DNA of 64,000 nucleotides from a bacterium (lineage in GTDB: Bacteria > Patescibacteriota > Minisyncoccia > Minisyncoccales > JAGLPU01). The stretch is taken from NCBI GenBank assembly GCA_030635055.1, contig DAOVZN010000003.1, positions 4,121 through 68,120 on the forward strand, read 5' to 3'. The notes under the pieces are model-generated. The model did no database searches. It was not told the origin of the DNA and was given only the letters and a program-made list of their open reading frames with translations. Shown here one piece after another: positions 6,857 to 54,866 of the stretch (position 1 is its first letter; each line of letters begins with the position of its first letter). Made by a program: the position numbers and the translations under genes.

Positions 6857-6973
6857 TACCTTATTATACTTATTACCGAACTTAAATCAATTCAAAAGCT
6901 TGACTGACCAGCGGATTTCTGTTCTAATTAAAAAATCAAATGTTCATTGATAATAAAATACGAGGTGGAAAAC

Positions 6974-7930
6974 ATGAGTGAAGAAAAAAGCACTAGGCTG
7001 CAGAAGGGATATTGGTTTGACAATCCCTTTAAAATTGGACAAAAAAGAGCTGAAATATTCTCTGATTTGTATATAAACCGCACAAGGCTGACTTTGGAAA
7101 AAGACAATTTTCATCCTGAGGTTATTGTGGAATTCTATCTCAATCAGCCAAATGCTACTTATAGGATAGATGAAGCACTGGCTCTTCTCAGAATTGGAAC
7201 TGGTTTTTTTAAAGAAGATAAATTTGTTGATAGCTGGGGAAAGCTTATTGTTAAAGCTCTCTATAACGGAGAAAAAGCAAAAATTGGAGAACCAGTGATA
7301 ATTGTTGAAGGAGATTATCAACACTTTTGCCATTTAGTGCCGATCGCTCAAAAAATTTTAGCGGGACGCTTTGAAATAACCGAAGCCATAACCAGAGATG
7401 GCATACAACTCCCCATATATTATTGCCGTGACGATTTGAACAAAAAGTCACTGGAAGAAACAATAAGATGGGGAATAGTGCCTGAAGACCTTATTACTGT
7501 TTATGGAAGCGCGGCAATAGCGGCAAGCAAGTTTATTACATCGTCTAGTGTCAGCATAATCCCTGTTGTTTCTTTAGACAAAAACTGCATTAACGCCGCT
7601 TATAAGATCACTCGAATGACGGCGCAACAGCAATGGGGAGTCTGTTTCAAGAAAATGGATGAAATAGAAATTTCCGACCTGAATTTAATTAAAAAATTCA
7701 GGAAAAAATTGGACAAAAGTAGTTTTGGTTGGGTTAAAATAATGCTTTTGACAGGACTGTCGGGATTAAAAAATCCAAATGTTCTTAAAGCAATAAAAGC
7801 AAAACAATTCCCAATTGATGTCGTCGGTTTAACCGATTATTCTGCATCCTACGAATATAACTCAAGGATAGTCCCTATAAATGGAAAACCTAAATATATA
7901 GAAAACCCACGGTTAAAGATCGTTAAATAA
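6974..7930 (+). CDS. divergent nicotinate phosphoribosyltransferase-like protein (tentative)
   Basis: Start set at ATG 6974 behind AGGTGG. N-terminus AEIFSDLYINRTRLTLEKDNFHPEVIVEFY resembles the archaeal-type NAPRTase opening (tDvYF.RT..iL...g....V..E). C-terminal VKIMLLTGL...IDVVGLTDY resembles kI..SggL...vD.fGVGT. Catalytic residues not verifiable by eye. Confidence 0.35.
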   Translation: MSEEKSTRLQKGYWFDNPFKIGQKRAEIFSDLYINRTRLTLEKDNFHPEVIVEFYLNQPNATYRIDEALALLRIGTGFFKEDKFVDSWGKLIVKALYNGEKAKIGEPVIIVEGDYQHFCHLVPIAQKILAGRFEITEAITRDGIQLPIYYCRDDLNKKSLEETIRWGIVPEDLITVYGSAAIAASKFITSSSVSIIPVVSLDKNCINAAYKITRMTAQQQWGVCFKKMDEIEISDLNLIKKFRKKLDKSSFGWVKIMLLTGLSGLKNPNVLKAIKAKQFPIDVVGLTDYSASYEYNSRIVPINGKPKYIENPRLKIVK

Positions 7931-7936
7931 AACACA

Positions 7937-7962
7937 CCAAGGCAATTGCCTTGGCTTTTTTT
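7937..7962 (+). terminator. intrinsic terminator whose T-run runs into the next -35
   Basis: CCAAGGCAATTGCCTTGG then CTTTTTTT, merging into TTGACA at 7961. Confidence 0.75.
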
Positions 7963-8066
7963 GACAAATCAGGAAAAATATGTTTTAATTAGCGTAATGA
8001 ATAGAGATAAGCTGGAAACTTCAGCTTATCAGTGAAGCTCATTAAAAATCAAAGGTGATGAAGATG
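7956..8066 (+). repeat. promoter + leader module, family 1, copy 1
   Basis: TTGACA (7961), 17-nt spacer with TGT, TTTAAT. Leader hairpin GATAAGCTG-GAAACTT-CAGCTTATC (8006-8030). AAAGGTGATGAAGATG. One visible mismatch to 8723-8833. Confidence 0.85.
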
Positions 8067-8672
8067 AAAACAGATACTATTGCAAGAATGGAAAAAGCGA
8101 TTGCAACAAGAGAGCAAAAAGAGAAAGAATTAAAAGAGAATATAGTAGAACCAGATCAAAAAGCAAAAAAAATGCTACCGTATTTCCAAAAAGAATATGA
8201 TTGTATAAAGAAGTGCCGAGAGAAAGAGTTTCTGTCAGGTTTAGATACAGAAGTCTCTAGGTATTATAAAAATATAAATAGCGTGGTTCTTAAGACAAAA
8301 TACTGTTCTCTGCTCATAAAAATATTGTATGATGTGGGAGCAACGGCAGTGATAAACGGCGTATGCCGTCAAACAGAAGACTTGGCAAAGTCTTTCAGAA
8401 ACCAAGAGGCTTTCTTAGAAATAGTATATGCACACGGGTTTTTATTAATGGAATATAATCCGCCAGCAGCCAAAGATGTTTTTCTAAGAATGAGCGAAGT
8501 AGTCGGGGACATCAAGAAGGCTACTCCAAAAACCTTTCAGCTTATAGGGGATATTTCAAAAAATTTGGCAAAGATATTCTCTAAGGAGGGATCTGATCAA
8601 GCCAGAATGTACCTTAGGATAGCAGAGATATACCACAAGGAAGCCAAAATCCTAAGAACCCAGAAAAAGTAG
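8064..8672 (+). CDS. hypothetical helical protein
   Basis: ORF behind GGTGAT-N4-ATG. Alternative in-frame starts at GTG 8055 and ATG 8058. 202 aa, predicted all-helical by composition. No recognised motif. Confidence 0.6.
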   Translation: MKTDTIARMEKAIATREQKEKELKENIVEPDQKAKKMLPYFQKEYDCIKKCREKEFLSGLDTEVSRYYKNINSVVLKTKYCSLLIKILYDVGATAVINGVCRQTEDLAKSFRNQEAFLEIVYAHGFLLMEYNPPAAKDVFLRMSEVVGDIKKATPKTFQLIGDISKNLAKIFSKEGSDQARMYLRIAEIYHKEAKILRTQKK

Positions 8673-8688
8673 CTTGTCATAAAGATAA

Positions 8689-8729
8689 AAGCATTTAGCT
8701 TGCGTCAAGAATTCTTGGCGTTTTTTTTT
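8689..8729 (+). terminator. terminator module, homologous to 9402-9443
   Basis: AAGCATTTAGCTTGCGTCAAGAATTCTTGGCG plus T9. Hairpin CGTCAAGA/TCTTGGCG. The T-run overlaps the next TTGACA. Confidence 0.75.
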
Positions 8730-8833
8730 GACAAATCAGGAAAAATATGTTTTAATTAGCGTAATGAATAGAGATAAGCTGGAAACTTCAGCTTATCAGT
8801 GAAGCTCATTTAAAATCAAAGGTGATGAAGATG
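8723..8833 (+). repeat. promoter + leader module, family 1, copy 2
   Basis: Same 111 nt as 7956-8066, offset 767 nt. The single difference I can see is CTCATTAAAAATC versus CTCATTTAAAATC. Identity ends at the ATG. Confidence 0.85.
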
Positions 8834-9397
8834 CAAGAAAAAATCAAAACGACAGTTGGAGTAGCAGTAGGAATTTTTAACAATAACGGAGAGTTATTGT
8901 TAAAAAGAAGAAAACAAATCCCGTCAATTACCAAAGAAAGTTACTACGGATGTTGGGAGCTTCCACTGATAGCTGTCCCAGAAACAAAGGAAAAGAAAAT
9001 ACCGTACAACTACTTGGGCTTAGTAGTGAAGAGAGAAATTAAAAAAAGATGGGGAATTGATATCTTTCTAGATCCAATACCGGCCCTTTATCCGACAATG
9101 TTCAAAACTCCGGCCGGAGACTATGATCTGGCGATGATCACTGTTGTCGAAGCAATGATAATGGAGCTGCCAGAATCCATTGAAATAAAATGGGTTTCTC
9201 CCTCTGATCTCAATCTGTTGGCAGTGAAATTTGTTCCCGCAAAAATGGATAAAGGTAAGATCATAAAAAACGGAGAAGGGCTGTTGAGCGGAAAGAAAAG
9301 GCAGTTTCATATGGCTTTGAAAGCGATCAAGGTCGGATCCCCTTTCCCAGAATACAGGAGAACAGCCAACGAATTTCTCATAAGAGAACAAATATAA
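8831..9397 (+). CDS. degenerate NUDIX-fold protein (tentative)
   Basis: VGVAVGIFNNNGELLLKRR...GCWELPLIAV...VVKREIKKRWGIDI follows the Nudix box layout G-x5-E-x7-REUxEExGU, but KK replaces the catalytic EE. Confidence 0.4.
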   Translation: MQEKIKTTVGVAVGIFNNNGELLLKRRKQIPSITKESYYGCWELPLIAVPETKEKKIPYNYLGLVVKREIKKRWGIDIFLDPIPALYPTMFKTPAGDYDLAMITVVEAMIMELPESIEIKWVSPSDLNLLAVKFVPAKMDKGKIIKNGEGLLSGKKRQFHMALKAIKVGSPFPEYRRTANEFLIREQI

Positions 9398-9401
9398 TAA
9401 A

Positions 9402-9443
9402 AAGCAATTAGCTTGCGCTAGGAATTTATTCTTGGCGTTTTTT
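9402..9443 (+). terminator. terminator module, homologous to 8689-8729
   Basis: AAGCAATTAGCTTGCGCTAGGAATTTATTCTTGGCG plus T6. Confidence 0.7.
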
Positions 9444-9467
9444 ATTTAAATAATGTAATATATAATT

Positions 9468-10685
9468 ATGGAATTTACTTTACCTAGAATCCAAAAGATT
9501 ACCAAATATGCGACTGTTTCGCATTTTCTTTTGATGTTTGGCTATAAGTTTTTCTCTCTGTTCTTTCCTTTGTTTTTAATAGCTAAAGGATTTTCTCTGC
9601 CGGAAGTGGGTTATGCTTATCTTTTATTGTATGTGCCGATCGCTCTTTTTTCGCCGGTAGTCGGCTTTTTAAATCACAAAATAAATCCGGCTATTCTGGC
9701 CGCAGCCGGCATTCTCGGTTATGGAGCCTATTCTCTGGGAATGATCTTTATCCAAGAACAATATTTATTCTATTTTCTGCAAATCTTACTGGGAATCTCA
9801 GCCGCATTTTTTATGGTTTCTTTTCGGGCAATTTTAATAGGGCTACCTTTGGAAAACTATAATCGGTCTTTTGGCTGGTTTTACTCAGCTCCATCTTATG
9901 CCGCTGTTTTGGCTCCACTGATAGGCGCTGTAATCATTTGGCAGTTTGGTTTTGTTGGCGTTTTCACGGTAAGCCTATTTTTTCATCTTTTCAATGCTGT
10001 TTTTTGCTTCACTTACTTAAGAAAACCATCGGCAAGCCTAGTTGATAACGGCTTTAGTTTCCTGCAGTTTATGGGAAATTACCAGAAATCAATATTCAAA
10101 ATTTTTAAGAAAGCTATTCTTCCTTTTGTGCTTATTTCTTTCTCCACTTTATTTCTAGCAGGTTTTTACCGAGCATTTTTTCTTTTATTCCTAAAAGATA
10201 TTGGCTGGGAACAAAACCAGGTTATTTTGTTCTGCTCTTTGCTTCCTTTAGTATTTCTGCCGGTGTCTTTGTTGATAATTAAAAGGCTTAAAAAGCGAGA
10301 GGGAAACAGCAATATTATAAAAGGAGGCTTAATTGTTGCCGTATTTTCAATTCTATTCGGACTATTTGGAATGGTTTTAAACGCTCTTGTCTTTTTTAAA
10401 ATATCAATTATAACAGCGGCTGTTATTTTGGCTTTAATGATTGGAAAATCTATTGGCGACTTTATAGCTAATTCCGGACGCAGCAGCCTGCTTTCCAGAA
10501 AACTGAAAGAATACCCTGAAGAAGCCGGAGCCATAGACACAATATTCGCTCCTCTCGGAGCCGGAATAGGCTCTCTTGTCGCCGGCCTAGCTATTGGTTT
10601 TCTGGATTTTAGCCTATTATTTATCCTTGGCGGAGCTATTGTTTTGGCAACAGTTATGCTAGGAAAACGGCTGATTAAGATTTGA
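9468..10685 (+). CDS. MFS-type transporter
   Basis: 405 aa, about 12 hydrophobic segments in a 6+6 arrangement with a central basic loop (LRKPSASLVDNG). Typical major-facilitator topology. Confidence 0.7.
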   Translation: MEFTLPRIQKITKYATVSHFLLMFGYKFFSLFFPLFLIAKGFSLPEVGYAYLLLYVPIALFSPVVGFLNHKINPAILAAAGILGYGAYSLGMIFIQEQYLFYFLQILLGISAAFFMVSFRAILIGLPLENYNRSFGWFYSAPSYAAVLAPLIGAVIIWQFGFVGVFTVSLFFHLFNAVFCFTYLRKPSASLVDNGFSFLQFMGNYQKSIFKIFKKAILPFVLISFSTLFLAGFYRAFFLLFLKDIGWEQNQVILFCSLLPLVFLPVSLLIIKRLKKREGNSNIIKGGLIVAVFSILFGLFGMVLNALVFFKISIITAAVILALMIGKSIGDFIANSGRSSLLSRKLKEYPEEAGAIDTIFAPLGAGIGSLVAGLAIGFLDFSLLFILGGAIVLATVMLGKRLIKI

Positions 10686-10710
10686 CAAATAAAGAAATCT
10701 GTTCTAAAAA
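10682..10710 (+). promoter_or_regulatory. promoter, family 2, copy 1
   Basis: TTGACAAATAAAGAAATCTGTTCTAAAAAGACGGCAA. The core shared with 11221 is AAATCTGTTCTAAAAAGAC(G/A)GCAA. The TTGACA overlaps the MFS stop codon. Confidence 0.6.
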
Positions 10711-10769
10711 GACGGCAAGGCTGAAAACTCAGCTTTTAAACAGGTTCGTTAAAAAAGGGGTGTTGCAAT

Positions 10770-11183
10770 ATGGAAAAAAAAGAAAGAGATGTGGCTGAAT
10801 TAAAGGAATATGCCGAAAAAATAAATAATGTACTGGAAACAGTTTTCAAAACGCTAGAAAGAGATTACATTGGAGAATGGCATATGGAATATAGAGAAAA
10901 GTCTTATCATGCCGGGGAATTATCAGAACATGCTACTATTGGACGGGATACTCCGAAAGAAGTATTAACACCTGTCTCTTCGATATTTCCAGGCAAGGAA
11001 CTAACTTTGATTTTAACAAGAAATACGCGAGACCAAATTGGAAAAGCAGTATGGAAAATTTCTTCCGGATGGCCTTCTGACGATCTGAAAAAAATCATAA
11101 AAGATGCGTTAAAAAGTCAAGGATTGGAACTAGAAGACAATAAAATACTAAGTGTAGAACCAGAAAAGCTTTTGCCCCGATAA
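10770..11183 (+). CDS. hypothetical protein
   Basis: 137-aa ORF behind AAAGGGGTG. Has its own promoter and terminator. No recognised motif. Confidence 0.55.
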   Translation: MEKKERDVAELKEYAEKINNVLETVFKTLERDYIGEWHMEYREKSYHAGELSEHATIGRDTPKEVLTPVSSIFPGKELTLILTRNTRDQIGKAVWKISSGWPSDDLKKIIKDALKSQGLELEDNKILSVEPEKLLPR

Positions 11184-11191
11184 ACTTATTT

Positions 11192-11222
11192 GCCTAACCG
11201 AAACGGTTAGGCGTTATTTTTT
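11192..11222 (+). terminator. intrinsic terminator fused to the next promoter
   Basis: GCCTAACCG-AAA-CGGTTAGGC then GTTATTTTTT, running into TTGACA at 11221. Confidence 0.75.
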
Positions 11223-11249
11223 GACAAAAACACAAATCTGTTCTAAAAA
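11221..11249 (+). promoter_or_regulatory. promoter, family 2, copy 2
   Basis: TTGACAAAAACACAAATCTGTTCTAAAAAGACAGCAA. Same length and layout as 10682. Confidence 0.6.
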
Positions 11250-11292
11250 GACAGCAATCAGTTTTTTTAAAATATATATAAGGGGTGAGTTG

Positions 11293-35054: not shown

Positions 35055-35915
35055 ATGAAAGTAATAATAGTAAAACCAAAAATTTGGAACTTCGAAGTGA
35101 TCAAAGGGAAAGACGCTTGGAAAGAAGTAGTTTATTCAGGAAGAGTGAGCGGCATTCCTCCGCAAGTGCCCGATGATTTTATTTTCCAAATGATAGTTGA
35201 TAATGATTATGGCTCGACTTTAGAGCATATCTCTATTAAATTTGACCTTAAAATGACTAAGGGCAATGCGCCTGAGCTACTGGAACACAGAATGATGAGC
35301 CATACCGGATATTCAACCAGATATATTAAAGCTGATCAAGGAATGGATAAAGAAGAAGCGTCTTATGAAATAATTATGCCCTGGCATTTGTTGAAATTAA
35401 ACAAAGACCATCCGCAAAGGCAAGAGTTCAGAAAAGGAGTTTTACAAACAATCGAATCTTATGAAAAATTGATAGAAGCGAAAATTCCTCGAGAATCAGC
35501 GCGCTATACTCTGCCTTTTTGCCAAGCAGTCGGCATTTATCATATTACTATAAACTTAAGGTCTCTGTTGAATCTTCTTTCTTTGCGCCTTTGTGTTAGA
35601 ACCAGCCCGGAATTCCGCTGTCTGACTGCCCAACTCTATTTCTTATTAAACCAACATTTCCCGGCCATGGCCGGACACATTGGCTGCCGTGGCTTTATCA
35701 GAGGAACTTGTCCGGAAAGCGGAGTAACCGGAGTAAGAGCCGGAGAACAAAGCCGCATTTATCCTCCCTGCTTATTTAAAAACAACCAATCCGAAATTTT
35801 TATTCCAACAACCAAAGAACTGAGAAAAGGAATAAATATTTCAGAATTTAATAAAGAAAAAGCCATTCAAGCCCAAGAAGCATATTGTGCTCATTGGGCA
35901 AAGTGGGAAGGATAA
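35055..35915 (+). CDS. thyX: divergent flavin-dependent thymidylate synthase (ThyX-like)
   Basis: Start at ATG 35055. YGSTLEHISIKFDL, then LEHRMMSHTGYSTRY where ThyX has RHRxxSxxxxSxR, then ARYTLPF...NLRSLLNLLSLRLC...EFRCLTAQL. About 70-aa Cys-rich C-terminal extension. Confidence 0.65.
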   Translation: MKVIIVKPKIWNFEVIKGKDAWKEVVYSGRVSGIPPQVPDDFIFQMIVDNDYGSTLEHISIKFDLKMTKGNAPELLEHRMMSHTGYSTRYIKADQGMDKEEASYEIIMPWHLLKLNKDHPQRQEFRKGVLQTIESYEKLIEAKIPRESARYTLPFCQAVGIYHITINLRSLLNLLSLRLCVRTSPEFRCLTAQLYFLLNQHFPAMAGHIGCRGFIRGTCPESGVTGVRAGEQSRIYPPCLFKNNQSEIFIPTTKELRKGINISEFNKEKAIQAQEAYCAHWAKWEG

Positions 35916-35919
35916 ATTT

Positions 35920-37146
35920 ATGGAAAACGTATTAACTCTGCTTAAGAAACATCAAGATTGGCGCAAAAACTGCCTGAACTTGATCGCTTCTGAAAACGCA
36001 ATGTCAGACTTTGCCCAAAAGCTATATGTGACTGACTTAATGCATCGCTATGCTGAAGGATTGCCTTTTAAAAGATATTATCAAGGGCTGAAGTATGTTG
36101 ATTTGATTGAAGATGAAGTGAGCAAATCTTTTGCCAGCCATTTTCAGGCAAACTTTGTGGACATCCGTCCTATTTCCGGGACATCGGCCAACTTGGCTGT
36201 TTTCGCGGCTTTAAGCGATAGAGGAGATAAGATCTTAACTCTGGGAATTCAGGGAGGCTCGCATGTATCACATGAAGAACCGGGAGCGGCCGGACTTTTG
36301 GGCTTGCAAGTTTTCCATCTAGCCTTTGACCAGCAAGAGCTGGCTCTTGATTTAAACAAAGTAGAACAGCAAATAATGGAAATAAGGCCCAAGTTTGTGG
36401 TTTTAGGCGGTTCAGTTATTCTATTTCCCCAGCCAGTAAGAGAAATAAAAGAGATGTGCCAAAGAGTGGGAGCCCTCCTTATATACGATGCCGCTCATGT
36501 TTTTGGCTTGATTACAGCCGGCTTTTTCCAAAACCCTTTGGCAGAAGGAGCGGATATCATCACATCTTCCAGCCATAAAACTTTTCCCGGACCGCAAGGA
36601 GGAATAATTTTGGGTAATATTGACGAAGAACTGCAAAAGAAGATCCGTTGGAAAGTTTTTCCCGGGGTATTGTCCAACCACCATCTCCACAGAATTCCCG
36701 CCCTTTATTTAACTTTGTTGGAAATGCAAAAATTCGGCAAAGATTATGTCGCGCAAATTCTAAAAAACGCAAAGAAATTAGCCGAAGAGCTATATGATTA
36801 CGGCTTTGATGTTTTAGGCAAGAGAAAGGGATTTACCGCAAGCCACCAGATAGCAGTTGATGTCAGCAAACAAGGAGGAGGAGACATAGTAGCCAAGGAA
36901 CTGGAAAACGTAAATATTATTCTCAATAAAAACATTCTTCCTTGGGACGGAGCCAATCCAAAAGATCCCAGCGGCATCCGCATTGGAGTGCAAGAAATGA
37001 CACGCTACGGGATGAAAGAAAACGAGATGAAACAAATCGCCAAGCTAATGAAAGAAACGCTATTAGATAAGAAGAATCCTGATAAAATGAGAAAGAAGGC
37101 AACCTGGCTGCGAAGAAACTTCCAAAAAATAAAATACTGTTTTTAA
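35920..37146 (+). CDS. glyA: serine hydroxymethyltransferase
   Basis: Start at ATG 35920. LIASENAMSDFAQ, YYQGLKYVD, SSSHKTFPGPQGG (PLP lysine). Confidence 0.9.
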   Translation: MENVLTLLKKHQDWRKNCLNLIASENAMSDFAQKLYVTDLMHRYAEGLPFKRYYQGLKYVDLIEDEVSKSFASHFQANFVDIRPISGTSANLAVFAALSDRGDKILTLGIQGGSHVSHEEPGAAGLLGLQVFHLAFDQQELALDLNKVEQQIMEIRPKFVVLGGSVILFPQPVREIKEMCQRVGALLIYDAAHVFGLITAGFFQNPLAEGADIITSSSHKTFPGPQGGIILGNIDEELQKKIRWKVFPGVLSNHHLHRIPALYLTLLEMQKFGKDYVAQILKNAKKLAEELYDYGFDVLGKRKGFTASHQIAVDVSKQGGGDIVAKELENVNIILNKNILPWDGANPKDPSGIRIGVQEMTRYGMKENEMKQIAKLMKETLLDKKNPDKMRKKATWLRRNFQKIKYCF

Positions 37147-52925: not shown

Positions 52926-53534
52926 ATGATAAATTTTAAAGAAGAAAAAAAATTAAGAAAGAAGCATAAACATATTGCCGGACTGGATGAAGCAGGCCGG
53001 GGACCAATCGCGGGCCCGGTTGTTGCGGCAGCGGTTGTTGTCCAGAATTATCCGCCGGCTGATTTTCCATGGAAGGAGATCAGAGATTCCAAGAAACTGT
53101 CAGCGAAAAGAAGAGAAGTGCTTTGCCAGCTTCTTACTCATCATCCGGAAATAGAATGGGGGATAGGCAAGGTGTCAGAAAAGATAATAGACAAGATCAA
53201 TATCCTTCAGGCCTCTAAACTGGCCATGGAGAAAGCGATAAAGAACCTGAAAAAAGTTGACTTCCTGCTCTTGGATGGAAACTTTAAAATAAACTCAAAA
53301 ATTCCCCAAAAATCAATAATCAAAGGAGATGACAAAGTTTTTTCCATTGCCGCGGCTTCCATAATCGCCAAAGTAAAACGGGACGCAATAATGAAAAAAA
53401 TGGATAAGAAATATCCCGGATACGGACTTAGTAAGCATAAAGGCTATCCCACCAAGCACCATAAAAAAATGCTTAAAAAACACGGTTCTTGCAAAATCCA
53501 CCGCCAAAGCTTCAAACCGGTTAAACAAGATTAA
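52926..53534 (+). CDS. rnhB: ribonuclease HII
   Basis: IAGLDEAGRGPIAGPVVAAAV...DSKKLS...ASIIAKVKRD. Confidence 0.92.
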   Translation: MINFKEEKKLRKKHKHIAGLDEAGRGPIAGPVVAAAVVVQNYPPADFPWKEIRDSKKLSAKRREVLCQLLTHHPEIEWGIGKVSEKIIDKINILQASKLAMEKAIKNLKKVDFLLLDGNFKINSKIPQKSIIKGDDKVFSIAAASIIAKVKRDAIMKKMDKKYPGYGLSKHKGYPTKHHKKMLKKHGSCKIHRQSFKPVKQD

Positions 53535-53636
53535 CCCTTGACAAATCAATATAGTTTGTTATAATACTAATAGTTCTTTGACATACAATTCAATACAGAA
53601 ATCAAAGAAGCTAAATAATGATTGGTGATAGAAATG
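53535..53636 (+). repeat. promoter + hairpin-leader module, family 3, copy A
   Basis: CCCTTGACA (53538), 16 nt with TGT, TATAAT (53560). Leader hairpin TTCTTTGA (53574) - 20 nt - TCAAAGAA (53602). TTGGTGAT-AGAA-ATGG. Confidence 0.85.
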
Positions 53637-53939
53637 GCAGGAGAAGAACAAAGCAATAAAGAAATTAAAGATGAAGTAAGAAATTTCTTTAAGTTAAAAG
53701 ATGAGAAAAGAAAGAAGAAAAAAATAAAAAGAGAAAAGGCACTCGACTCTTTAAGAATAGCTTGCGCGAAGAAAGGAGATATCGCTGCCACAATTGAAAA
53801 TGCAAAGATTGGAGCTCCGGAGACAACAGTCAAACTCTTAAAAATAGTTGACTTGGAGAAAAACATTGATGGCTATACGTTGGGAGGAAAGAAGTTGACA
53901 GTAGCTGAGATAAAAGAGCTTACCGAGGCAATAAAATAA
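53634..53939 (+). CDS. hypothetical small protein (cassette A)
   Basis: 101 aa, K/E-rich. MAGEEQSNKEIKDE... No recognised motif. Confidence 0.55.
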   Translation: MAGEEQSNKEIKDEVRNFFKLKDEKRKKKKIKREKALDSLRIACAKKGDIAATIENAKIGAPETTVKLLKIVDLEKNIDGYTLGGKKLTVAEIKELTEAIK

Positions 53940-53950
53940 AAAAATGATTC

Positions 53951-53996
53951 CGAGTGGCGATGATAAGATATTTATCTTTCGTCGCTCGTTTTTTTT
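53951..53996 (+). terminator. terminator of cassette A
   Basis: Imperfect long hairpin CGAGTGGCGA..AAGATA-TT-TATCTT..CGTCGCTCG plus T8. Confidence 0.7.
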
Positions 53997-54077
53997 ATCC
54001 CCTAAAAAAACACGATCATTCGTGTTTTAAACTTTGTTCGCCGGCTTTATAATAAAACCCAAATTCACACTCTCACC

Positions 54078-54177
54078 CCCTTGACAAATCTATATAGTCT
54101 GCTATAATACTAATAGTTCTTTGACATACAATTCAATACAGAAATCAAAGAAACTAAATATTTTGGTGATAGATATG
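54078..54177 (+). repeat. promoter + hairpin-leader module, family 3, copy B
   Basis: Roughly nine differences from copy A over about 100 nt. Same -35, TGnTATAAT, hairpin and GGTGAT-N4-ATGG. Confidence 0.85.
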
Positions 54178-54414
54178 GTTAAAGAAATAGGAGAAAAAGA
54201 TGCTCGGAAATTATTGGATCAAAAACCAACTAACTCTGACCTGCGCCGTATAATTCAATACGTAGAACCACTCAGAGAAGAAGCTGGAAAGAAATTATGG
54301 AATCAAGAAGGGCCAATAAGCGATAGGGATCTACATTGTATTATTGAATATGTAGATTCTCTCAGAGATATGGCAAAAAACCATTCCTGGTATAAAAAAA
54401 GAGAAAGGGTGTAA
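54175..54414 (+). CDS. hypothetical small protein with internal duplication (cassette B)
   Basis: 79 aa from ATG 54175. The track start at 54121 is a TTG inside the leader hairpin. Internal repeat SDLRRIIQYVEPLREEAGKKLW / RDLHCIIEYVDSLRDMAKNHSW. Confidence 0.55.
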   Translation: MVKEIGEKDARKLLDQKPTNSDLRRIIQYVEPLREEAGKKLWNQEGPISDRDLHCIIEYVDSLRDMAKNHSWYKKRERV

Positions 54415-54488
54415 ATTGCACTGATTTCTCTTCATACACAAGCGGAAACAATGGTGAAAAAACGAGAAGGGAAATAACTTCTCAAAAT

Positions 54489-54520
54489 AGCGGTAAAAGA
54501 AATTTATTTCTTTTACCGCT
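54489..54520 (+). terminator. hairpin of cassette B
   Basis: Perfect 15-bp stem AGCGGTAAAAGAAAT-TT-ATTTCTTTTACCGCT. The T-run starts 5 nt downstream. Confidence 0.6.
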
Positions 54521-54620
54521 CACACTTTTTTACACACGCTCAATTGCGTGCTTAAACTTTGTCTACCGCAGATATTGCAAATTAAACCGCGAAAGTTTTA
54601 ACCGGTTAAATCAAATAAAG

Positions 54621-54652
54621 AACGCATATGACACGGGCGTGTCATATGCGTT
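54621..54652. repeat. perfect palindrome 1
   Basis: AACGCATATGACACG-GG-CGTGTCATATGCGTT. Confidence 0.85.
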
Positions 54653-54688
54653 ACTTGACTTTTCTTGCGGTCGCAAGAAAAGTCAAGT
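54653..54688. repeat. perfect palindrome 2, abutting palindrome 1
   Basis: ACTTGACTTTTCTTGCG-GT-CGCAAGAAAAGTCAAGT. Confidence 0.85.
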
Positions 54689-54765
54689 TCTATTTCAGAC
54701 TAATTAAAATTCTAGAAAAGGACGAGACCCGACCTCCTTCATTCTTTTGCATTAGACAATCCCAA

Positions 54766-54866
54766 CCCTTGACAAATTGATATCGTTTGTTATAATATCA
54801 ATAGTTCTTTGACATACAACTTAATACAGAAATCAAAGAAACTAACTATGCTTGGTGATGAAAGTG
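54766..54866 (+). repeat. promoter + hairpin-leader module, family 3, copy C
   Basis: Same layout as A and B. Loop variant CATACAACTTAATACAGAAA. Ends TTGGTGAT-GAAA-GTGG. Confidence 0.85.

Follow-up and report, generated by a model that had tools for sequence, protein, structure and literature searches.

Duplicated sequences in bacteria can evolve in concert through gene conversion, as is known from the tufA/tufB pair. Here we describe a related pattern in a bacterium of the order Minisyncoccales, a member of the candidate phyla radiation (CPR, Patescibacteria), in a 64,000-nucleotide (nt) stretch of contig DAOVZN010000003.1 (assembly GCA_030635055.1), the whole of which is called the window below, where a 114-nt direct repeat with a predicted promoter and transcribed leader stands before two open reading frames (ORFs), A and B. 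As in the tuf pair, nearby direct repeats resemble each other within one genome more closely than orthologues from different genomes do, whereas the sequence concerned here is a non-coding promoter-leader that precedes non-homologous genes and ends at the start codon. Small gene units that are complete in themselves and occupy a variable slot amid conserved genes also recall phage morons and integron cassettes; however, no integrase was found among the ORFs scanned around the locus, no attC-like recombination site and no prophage context were seen there, and, unlike integron cassettes, every unit carries its own promoter. CPR bacteria cannot be grown alone, and to our knowledge almost nothing is known about their gene control. 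In what follows, G000 is the genome that contains the window, G001 its sister genome (contig L016), L-codes are contigs of relatives, and f1, f16 and f50 are families of the order.

A close counterpart is the promoter-early stem-loop (PeSL) cassette of T4-type phages, a terminator-promoter composite that drives modular shuffling (Arbiol et al. 2010, PMC2839356; Comeau et al. 2014, PMC4122927). Both systems join the stop codon of the preceding gene and a terminator stem-loop to a strong sigma-70-type promoter with a ribosome-binding site (RBS) and a start codon, both are repeated before small, poorly conserved genes, and in both the gene content between copies varies among close relatives, as would be expected if the repeats provided homology for recombination. 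In contrast to PeSLs, the present module lies on a cellular (CPR) chromosome and not in a T4-type phage, occurs in two to three copies per locus instead of about 50 per genome, and includes in its conserved part a transcribed, structured leader of about 68 nt with covariation; its cargo is mostly one TPR-like paralogous family plus a resident Nudix gene, not assorted orphans, and here we infer recombination between the copies. As to copy number, two close copies and one older copy were found, and other repeated promoter-leader sets stand at 10681/11220 and 53521/54064/54752.

The second counterpart is the 5′ stem-loop that stabilises mRNA in Escherichia coli and Bacillus, as in the ompA/papA leaders (Emory et al. 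1992, pmid 1370426) and the cryIIIA STAB-SD (Agaisse and Lereclus 1996, pmid 8736542), both cited in PMC3997798. As in those leaders, a stem-loop is predicted here at or near the first mRNA nucleotide, upstream of an A-rich spacer and the RBS, its outer helix P1 beginning 6 nt past the -10 hexamer (7995 vs 7989). The genome encodes RNase J (545 bits, G000:C21:15428-17071) and RNase Y (618 bits, G000:C18:113643-115148), both above curated cut-offs, the set which such elements oppose in Bacillus; RNase E/G was not found in the 89.6% complete genome, and the mRNA decay set is Bacillus-like. The f16 copies carry GGAGG in the 5′ part of the leader, as does STAB-SD. The conserved internal-loop bases and the concerted evolution are not known from the described stabilisers, and both the 5′ end and the stabilising effect are here predicted.

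We propose, with a probability of roughly 60%, that the repeat is a portable promoter-leader-terminator module with homogenised copies, whose 5′ stem-loop likely acts as an mRNA stabiliser. The 114-nt repeat would constitute the expression part, with a strong sigma-70-type promoter, a leader of about 68 nt, an A-rich spacer, an RBS and a start codon; the leader RNA would fold from about its first nucleotide into a stem-loop, and each unit would be closed by a related intrinsic terminator, the T run of which abuts the next -35 box. Neighbouring copies are homogenised, probably by gene conversion or re-duplication and recently in G000, over a tract that would extend from the terminator T run to the start codon, so that identity stops at the ATG. 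A and B would be alike in transcription start and in 5′ RNA structure, and would therefore be expressed together. The 5′-terminal stem-loop would most likely shield the mRNA from 5′-end-dependent decay, and may also bind a shared factor, while the repeated terminator-promoter-leader blocks would offer recombination homology that alters the number and order of units between close relatives. We infer from the patterns given below where transcription starts, how the copies are converted, that the stem-loop stabilises the mRNA and that A is co-expressed with B. The features of the locus are the following.

7937-7960, + strand: predicted terminator T0 of the upstream 327-aa gene, hairpin 7937-7954 (CCAAGGCAATTGCCTTGG) and T run reaching the -35 box (terminator scan and sequence)
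7961-7989, + strand: predicted promoter copy 1, -35 TTGACA 7961-7966, 17-nt spacer, TG 7981-7982, -10 TTTAAT 7984-7989
7995-8044, + strand: predicted structured leader copy 1, helix P1 7995-8000/8039-8044 enclosing helix P2 8006-8014/8022-8030, with two further possible P2 pairs
8001-8005 and 8031-8038, + strand: purine-rich internal loop of copy 1, between P1 and P2
8045-8066, + strand: A-rich spacer, RBS AGGTGA 8053-8058 and ATG 8064-8066, kept in all leader copies (sequence)
8064-8672, + strand: ORF A, 202 aa, all-helical TPR-like repeat protein by AlphaFold model, member of a tandemly amplified family
8687-8729, + strand: 3′ module T1, predicted hairpin 8702-8721 and T run overlapping the -35 box of copy 2 (repeat search and terminator scan)
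8723-8836, + strand: promoter and leader copy 2, -35 8728-8733, -10 8751-8756, RBS 8820-8825, ATG 8831
8762-8767/8806-8811 and 8773-8781/8789-8797, + strand: predicted helices P1 and P2 of copy 2, placed by the 112/114 identity to 7956-8069
8831-9397, + strand: ORF B, 188 aa, Nudix fold with degenerate Nudix box (AlphaFold and PDB structure matches)
9400-9446, + strand: 3′ module T1′, predicted hairpin 9415-9438 and T run, followed by the promoter region of the MFS gene (repeat search and terminator scan)
9468-10685, + strand: MFS transporter gene, the conserved right-hand anchor (Pfam MFS_1 2e-17; syntenic in relatives)
10682-10772, + strand: older leader paralogue before a 137-aa ORF (10770-11183), same promoter type, hairpin AAGGCTGA/TCAGCTTT and GTTCGTT box

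The two copies of the repeat, 7956-8069 and 8723-8836, are spaced by 767 bp and are 98% identical by repeat search, with 112/114 matches in a pairwise alignment. Of the two mismatches, A8044 vs T8811 lies before the ATG and the other directly after it, and the repeat ends at 8069/8836. An earlier note on this DNA, made from the letters only, had described near-identical 111-nt blocks with one mismatch, whose identity ends at the ATG, and the alignment agrees with both statements. It had also listed TTGACA, an extended -10, a 9-bp hairpin and AAAGGTGATGAAGATG for each block; all were found in both copies, the extended -10 as TG-n-TTTAAT at 7981-7989 and 8748-8756, and the hairpin GATAAGCTG/CAGCTTATC at 8006-8030 and 8773-8797. 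The repeat contains what is predicted to be a sigma-70-type promoter with an extended -10, of which the -35 box and TG-n-TTTAAT are invariant and the spacer is variable in six close leader copies, and from the promoter geometry transcription would start at about 7995-7997. The 3′ ends, likewise claimed to be homologous, are 85% identical over 8687-8713 vs 9400-9426 and 95% over 8711-8729 vs 9428-9446 (81-95% by stretch), and T0, T1 and T1′ have a common CCAAG...CTTGG core. Terminator-like hairpins with T runs are predicted at 7937-7954, 8702-8721 and 9415-9438 and abut -35 boxes, giving the order T0, leader 1, ORF A, T1, leader 2, ORF B, T1′ and MFS gene.

Comparison of the region with itself and with the rest of its genome (768 kb in 25 contigs, 89.6% complete), one of the checks that had been suggested, showed that the repeat is real, with two close copies of the 114 nt genome-wide and no others. 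With regard to a miniature inverted-repeat transposable element (MITE) or another transposable element, only two tandem copies are present, and flanking inverted repeats were not found in the repeat search. A further check concerned an assembly artefact, in which a strain with the leader before A and a strain with the leader before B were joined at a collapsed repeat. Several related strains do share the samples, since variant strains with L036-like leaders and other unit ends co-occur in the same runs, and the repeat exceeds the 31-mers of the Logan contigs. We inspected the Logan contigs that had been built separately from four cold-seep metagenome runs containing the stretch. They cover 7700-7985 and 8014-8156 in 4/4 runs, the junction that leads from the 3′ end of A through T1 into leader 2 (in three runs, as 8532-8752 or 8590-8752), and 8781-9532 or parts of it in 4/4 runs, all with 0 mismatches and with similar depth for the A, B and flank pieces. 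These contigs break solely within the repeat, about 30 nt in, because 31-mer graphs cannot pass it. The junction piece, found in contigs of three separate runs, is possible in the tandem layout alone, and the repeat is therefore not an assembly artefact; in addition, a three-unit tandem array of the same design stands on a single contig in L036. We leave the artefact only a vanishingly small chance.

We analysed the leader RNA with a covariance model built from the six close leader copies and with covariation statistics on about 12-22 related sequences from few lineages. In 12 model-aligned copies, 98% of the cells of P2 are paired, four pairs are changed on both sides, and 0/500 shuffles were as good, and RNAalifold also recovered P2, with six covarying pairs, from a structure-blind MAFFT alignment. 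The predicted P2 helix is well supported, and is probably the inner of two helices in an element that lies at the transcript's predicted 5′ end. The outer helix P1 would pair the first nucleotides after the predicted start (7995-8000) with the conserved GTTC(A/G)TT box (8039-8044). At two of its pairs UA has become CG; taken alone, P1 is 88% paired, vs at most 51% when slid; jointly, P1 and P2 are 91% paired vs 83% in shuffles, and at most 52% with the partners slid. P1 is present in most single-sequence folds and is graded as probable only, because RNAalifold does not return it.

The same 9+9 inverted repeat could also be read as a DNA operator, on which a dimeric repressor would act as a roadblock, the RNA hairpin being incidental. 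The perfect 9-bp palindrome indeed lies at about +10 to +35 of both promoters and is identical in the sister genome G001. Nevertheless, we consider an operator improbable: the changes in relatives preserve the pairing of the sense-strand RNA, with 13 G-U pairs vs 2 A-C mismatches in P2, a bias that favours an RNA structure over a DNA palindrome. Furthermore, whole arms have changed in sequence with pairing retained (AAAUUG/CAAUUU in L032; GUUUGGUU or GAUUAGUC in analogous leaders), and the second helix, P1, covaries around the palindrome.

Between the two helices, internal-loop bases are conserved, namely UGA(A/G)G on the 3′ side of P2 and GGAGGAU or AUAGAG on its 5′ side. The leader could accordingly be a specific regulatory element, either a binding site for a protein, possibly the product of A or B, or a small ligand switch, by which A, B and the other leader-bearing genes are switched together, with the copies co-evolving to fit the same partner. 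This is a tentative alternative, to which we give rather low odds. It would fit the asymmetric internal-loop bases, which are kept across families while the helices vary, as well as the derived states common to within-genome copies, the occurrence of the leader on functionally linked genes beside a transporter gene, and a conservation well beyond that of near-neutral sites. On the other hand, the structure is small (about 50 nt), no terminator follows it, the MFS gene itself has no leader, and no candidate regulator was found. A search of Rfam 15 gave no family match for the leader, the best scores in 7000-10500 being 19-22 bits, with E at least 2, vs gathering thresholds of 40-51. The folds of the leader contained no alternative pairing that sequesters the RBS, and a translational switch is therefore not indicated. 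In a more specific version, which seems equally doubtful to us, the leader would be an undescribed cis-regulatory RNA of Patescibacteria, where a factor or ligand at the internal loop switches TPR-like, Nudix and small genes around the MFS gene, and which together with the terminator would make up a PeSL-like recombination module.

Three other interpretations of the leader were tried and rejected. An attenuator was discarded, there being no U run after P2 in G000 and no conserved alternative pairing with the RBS. An upstream ORF, starting with ATG 7997 and running as a 12-codon frame across P2 in G000, G001 and L036 unit 2, has ATA or ATC in place of its start in L036 units 3 and 1, is absent in f16, and undergoes non-synonymous changes while the RNA pairing stays. 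A second short frame behind P2 (GTG 8032) has neither a conserved frame nor a conserved stop.

With respect to sequence conservation, the leader is 89-94% identical to those of G001 and L036, and the terminator modules are 85-93% identical, vs 58-88% for the neighbouring genes overall and 58-65% for the third codon positions of the PEGA-like and MFS genes. The leader is hence better conserved than the coding sequence around it, as the earlier note had stated, and both halves of its explanation, recent copying or strong selection on the RNA, hold: the copies are 98% alike, and the P2 pairing is kept in relatives through compensatory and G-U changes. Copies that are 98% identical, 767 bp apart and accompanied by paralogous terminators would also result from a segmental duplication that was recent and neutral, with a leader structure devoid of function, and whole units have been amplified in tandem in L036. 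We regard such a neutral origin as highly improbable, in view of a leader that is conserved at 89-94% where third codon positions fall to 58-65%, that covaries, and that recurs on Nudix and TPR genes of another family.

The two copies are closer to each other (98%) than to the orthologous leaders (89-94%), which points to a recent duplication or gene conversion. The same trend was observed when the leaders of Nudix and TPR genes were paired within genomes, with 99% identity in G000, 85% in G016 and 77% in G089, vs 61-70% between orthologous copies of G016 and G089, and the within-genome pairs have common derived, compensated P2 states; in contrast, the leader copy behind the MFS gene groups by position, not by genome. 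The repeat of G016 measures about 215 nt and extends over the first 10 codons of both ORFs. As a side observation, the Nudix gene (L042:786-1538) and the TPR_12 gene (L046:711-1493) that flank the MFS gene of G016 begin with the same N-terminal ten residues, MGETVGDEIK, because the repeated module extends into both. Overall, these identities agree with gene conversion among direct repeats that lie close together, or with their repeated re-duplication, and the near-identity in G000 would be the youngest case of homogenisation. In addition, the third codon positions of ORF A (8064-8672 vs L036:6001-6609) are 80% identical, above the 58-65% of the flanking PEGA-like and MFS genes, which hints that the whole A unit was exchanged more recently than the flanks diverged. 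The number of units also varies, presumably by recombination between copies, from A and B in G000 to one truncated unit in G001 and X, Y and A in L036.

Several points weigh against the stabiliser module as proposed. Its 5′-terminal position follows from promoter geometry only, as the start position is predicted. P1 is weak and AU-rich, its register varies between copies, and the RNAalifold consensus of the MAFFT alignment does not recover it. The covariation statistics come from the few related sequences and lineages named above (about 12-22), in alignments that were partly fitted to the model. A plain stabiliser needs no conserved loop bases, and a specific binding partner is therefore possible. 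Conversion is deduced from similarity patterns alone, and repeated independent duplication would look alike. Finally, with strict filters, matches were obtained in 7/151 genomes of the order, and the leader family is therefore narrow.

We also compared the two ORFs. The AlphaFold model of ORF A (pLDDT, the predicted local distance difference test, 90.5) has nine helices, and its best PDB matches are TPR proteins (KLC, PlcR and RapF) at template modelling (TM) scores of 0.5-0.62, with weak Foldseek E-values of at least 4e-3. Neither ORF A nor its paralogues X and Y gave a TPR match in Pfam, ORF A being without any Pfam match, and hhalign of ORF A against the TPR_12 proteins of L039 and G016 aligned the last repeat only, at 6.7% probability. 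The model of ORF B (pLDDT 79) gave 163 PDB matches at E <=0.001, and the 50 best listed were all of the Nudix fold. Its Nudix box reads REIKKRWGI, with the catalytic EE of REUxEE (GX5EX7REUXEEXGU) replaced by KR, and its Pfam NUDIX score (E 0.06, 13.8 bits) is below the cut-off of 21.1, while the B homologues in G016 and G089 exceed the cut-off and retain the EE pair (RELKEE and REVKEE). BLASTP of A vs B showed no similarity (E 8.9), and the predicted folds differ. These results bear out the claim that the downstream ORFs, one helical and one degenerate Nudix-like, are completely different. The claim that the genes are unrelated stood as far as sequence goes; they are not arbitrary, however, being old neighbours in a conserved locus.

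A and B are, by synteny, long-standing neighbours, unrelated in sequence, in one conserved locus. The wider gene order is rpsI, the PEGA-like gene, small or TPR-like genes, Nudix, MFS, TPR or small genes, murA and mreB, which places the locus in a chromosomal setting between ribosomal-protein genes and murA/mreB. In G001, one leader copy (94% identity, identical hairpin) stands within the same flanks, followed by a 67-aa ORF and then by the terminator module and the MFS gene; that ORF was considered as a third unrelated gene, and this was rejected, as the alignment identified it as a truncated member of the A family. On L036, three units (X, Y and A) stand in tandem, and every one of them has a leader copy and a terminator module of its own; the A orthologue there has 83% protein identity to ORF A, X and Y are A paralogues, and the module behind the A orthologue is 93% identical to T1. 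In L032 an X-like gene adjoins the MFS gene, the slot holds a PIG-L gene in L033, and it is empty in L034. T1′ is kept upstream of the MFS gene in G001, L032, L035 and L036. In L035 (MFS 84% identical), the promoter type before the B homologue is the same, with a different leader of about 150 nt (166-354), for which Rfam gave no match.

A profile search in the 151 genomes of the order detected strong B homologues in several families, and most of those inspected adjoin the PEGA-like gene, the MFS gene or both. B homologues stand directly upstream of the MFS gene in L038 and L039, and in L039 a TPR_12 protein is encoded 6 nt before B, in what looks like an operon. In a genome of another family (G140:C5:29277-29831 and 35738-36292), the B family is matched twice, with identical scores and at a distance of 6.5 kb, which suggests a recent duplication of the B-containing locus there. 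The 327-aa ORF at 6947-7930, which separates the PEGA-like gene from the array, gave no Pfam match; among the genes of the locus it evolves fastest (58-62% nt identity to relatives), and it was seen only in relatives whose MFS protein is at least 68% identical (G001, L033, L034 and L036).

The leader family precedes TPR-like, Nudix-like and a few other small genes and, to judge from the sequences, is present in at least two families (f1 and f16) of one Patescibacteria order. In f16 (G016 and G089; L078, L079 and L080 are the same genomes and not independent data) leaders precede the Nudix gene, the TPR_12 gene, a 78-aa ORF, a 132-aa ORF and an HbpS-like gene, those before the HbpS-like gene and orphan ORFs being in G089. 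A leader of the same design precedes a Nudix gene in G143 (f50). In G000, only leader 1, leader 2 and the copy behind the MFS gene score well with the covariance model, the last with 65.5 bits under model R2, and orthologues of this copy occur in G001, L032 and L033. Searches with the exact 25-mer of the hairpin gave 0 matches in metagenome contigs and, in genome contigs, matched the sister genome only, and a degenerate leader pattern gave 0 matches in metagenome contigs.

Repeated promoter-leaders were also observed elsewhere. A 38-nt repeat (10681-10718 vs 11220-11257, 89%) stands before the 137-aa (10770) and 168-aa (11293) ORFs; the 10681 block has the old leader paralogue with its hairpin, the 11220 block has the promoter without the hairpin, and orthologous pairs of both blocks are present in G001 (L053) and L032. 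When the 168-aa ORF was compared by hhalign as a Nudix-like protein, the probability was 4.3%. At 53521-54848, three 97-nt promoter-leader copies (53521/54064/54752; 85-86%) precede small unrelated ORFs between rnhB and rpmF. Outside the window, two leaders of the same design with unrelated P2 sequence (GTTTGGTT...) stand before small membrane proteins (G000:C11:46813-46903 and G000:C24:42763-42857), and are made up of promoter, short outer helix, hairpin, UGAUG or UAGUG, A-rich spacer and RBS.

For bacteria of this kind, the locus offers a compact promoter-leader-terminator unit that is directly testable, a candidate 5′ leader whose predicted structure shows covariation and which has no match in Rfam, and a clear case of a regulatory sequence kept alike within each genome before non-homologous genes. 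A TPR-like family, an MFS transporter and a Nudix family that is partly degenerate are moreover brought together here as a functional set that merits study. If the repeats mediate the gain and loss of units, they would explain accessory-gene variation at fixed spots in tiny genomes, by a logic as in the PeSL cassettes and the rnhB-rpmF array. If, moreover, the leader were a cis-regulatory RNA, ultra-small bacteria could by this means amplify, swap and co-regulate small accessory genes.

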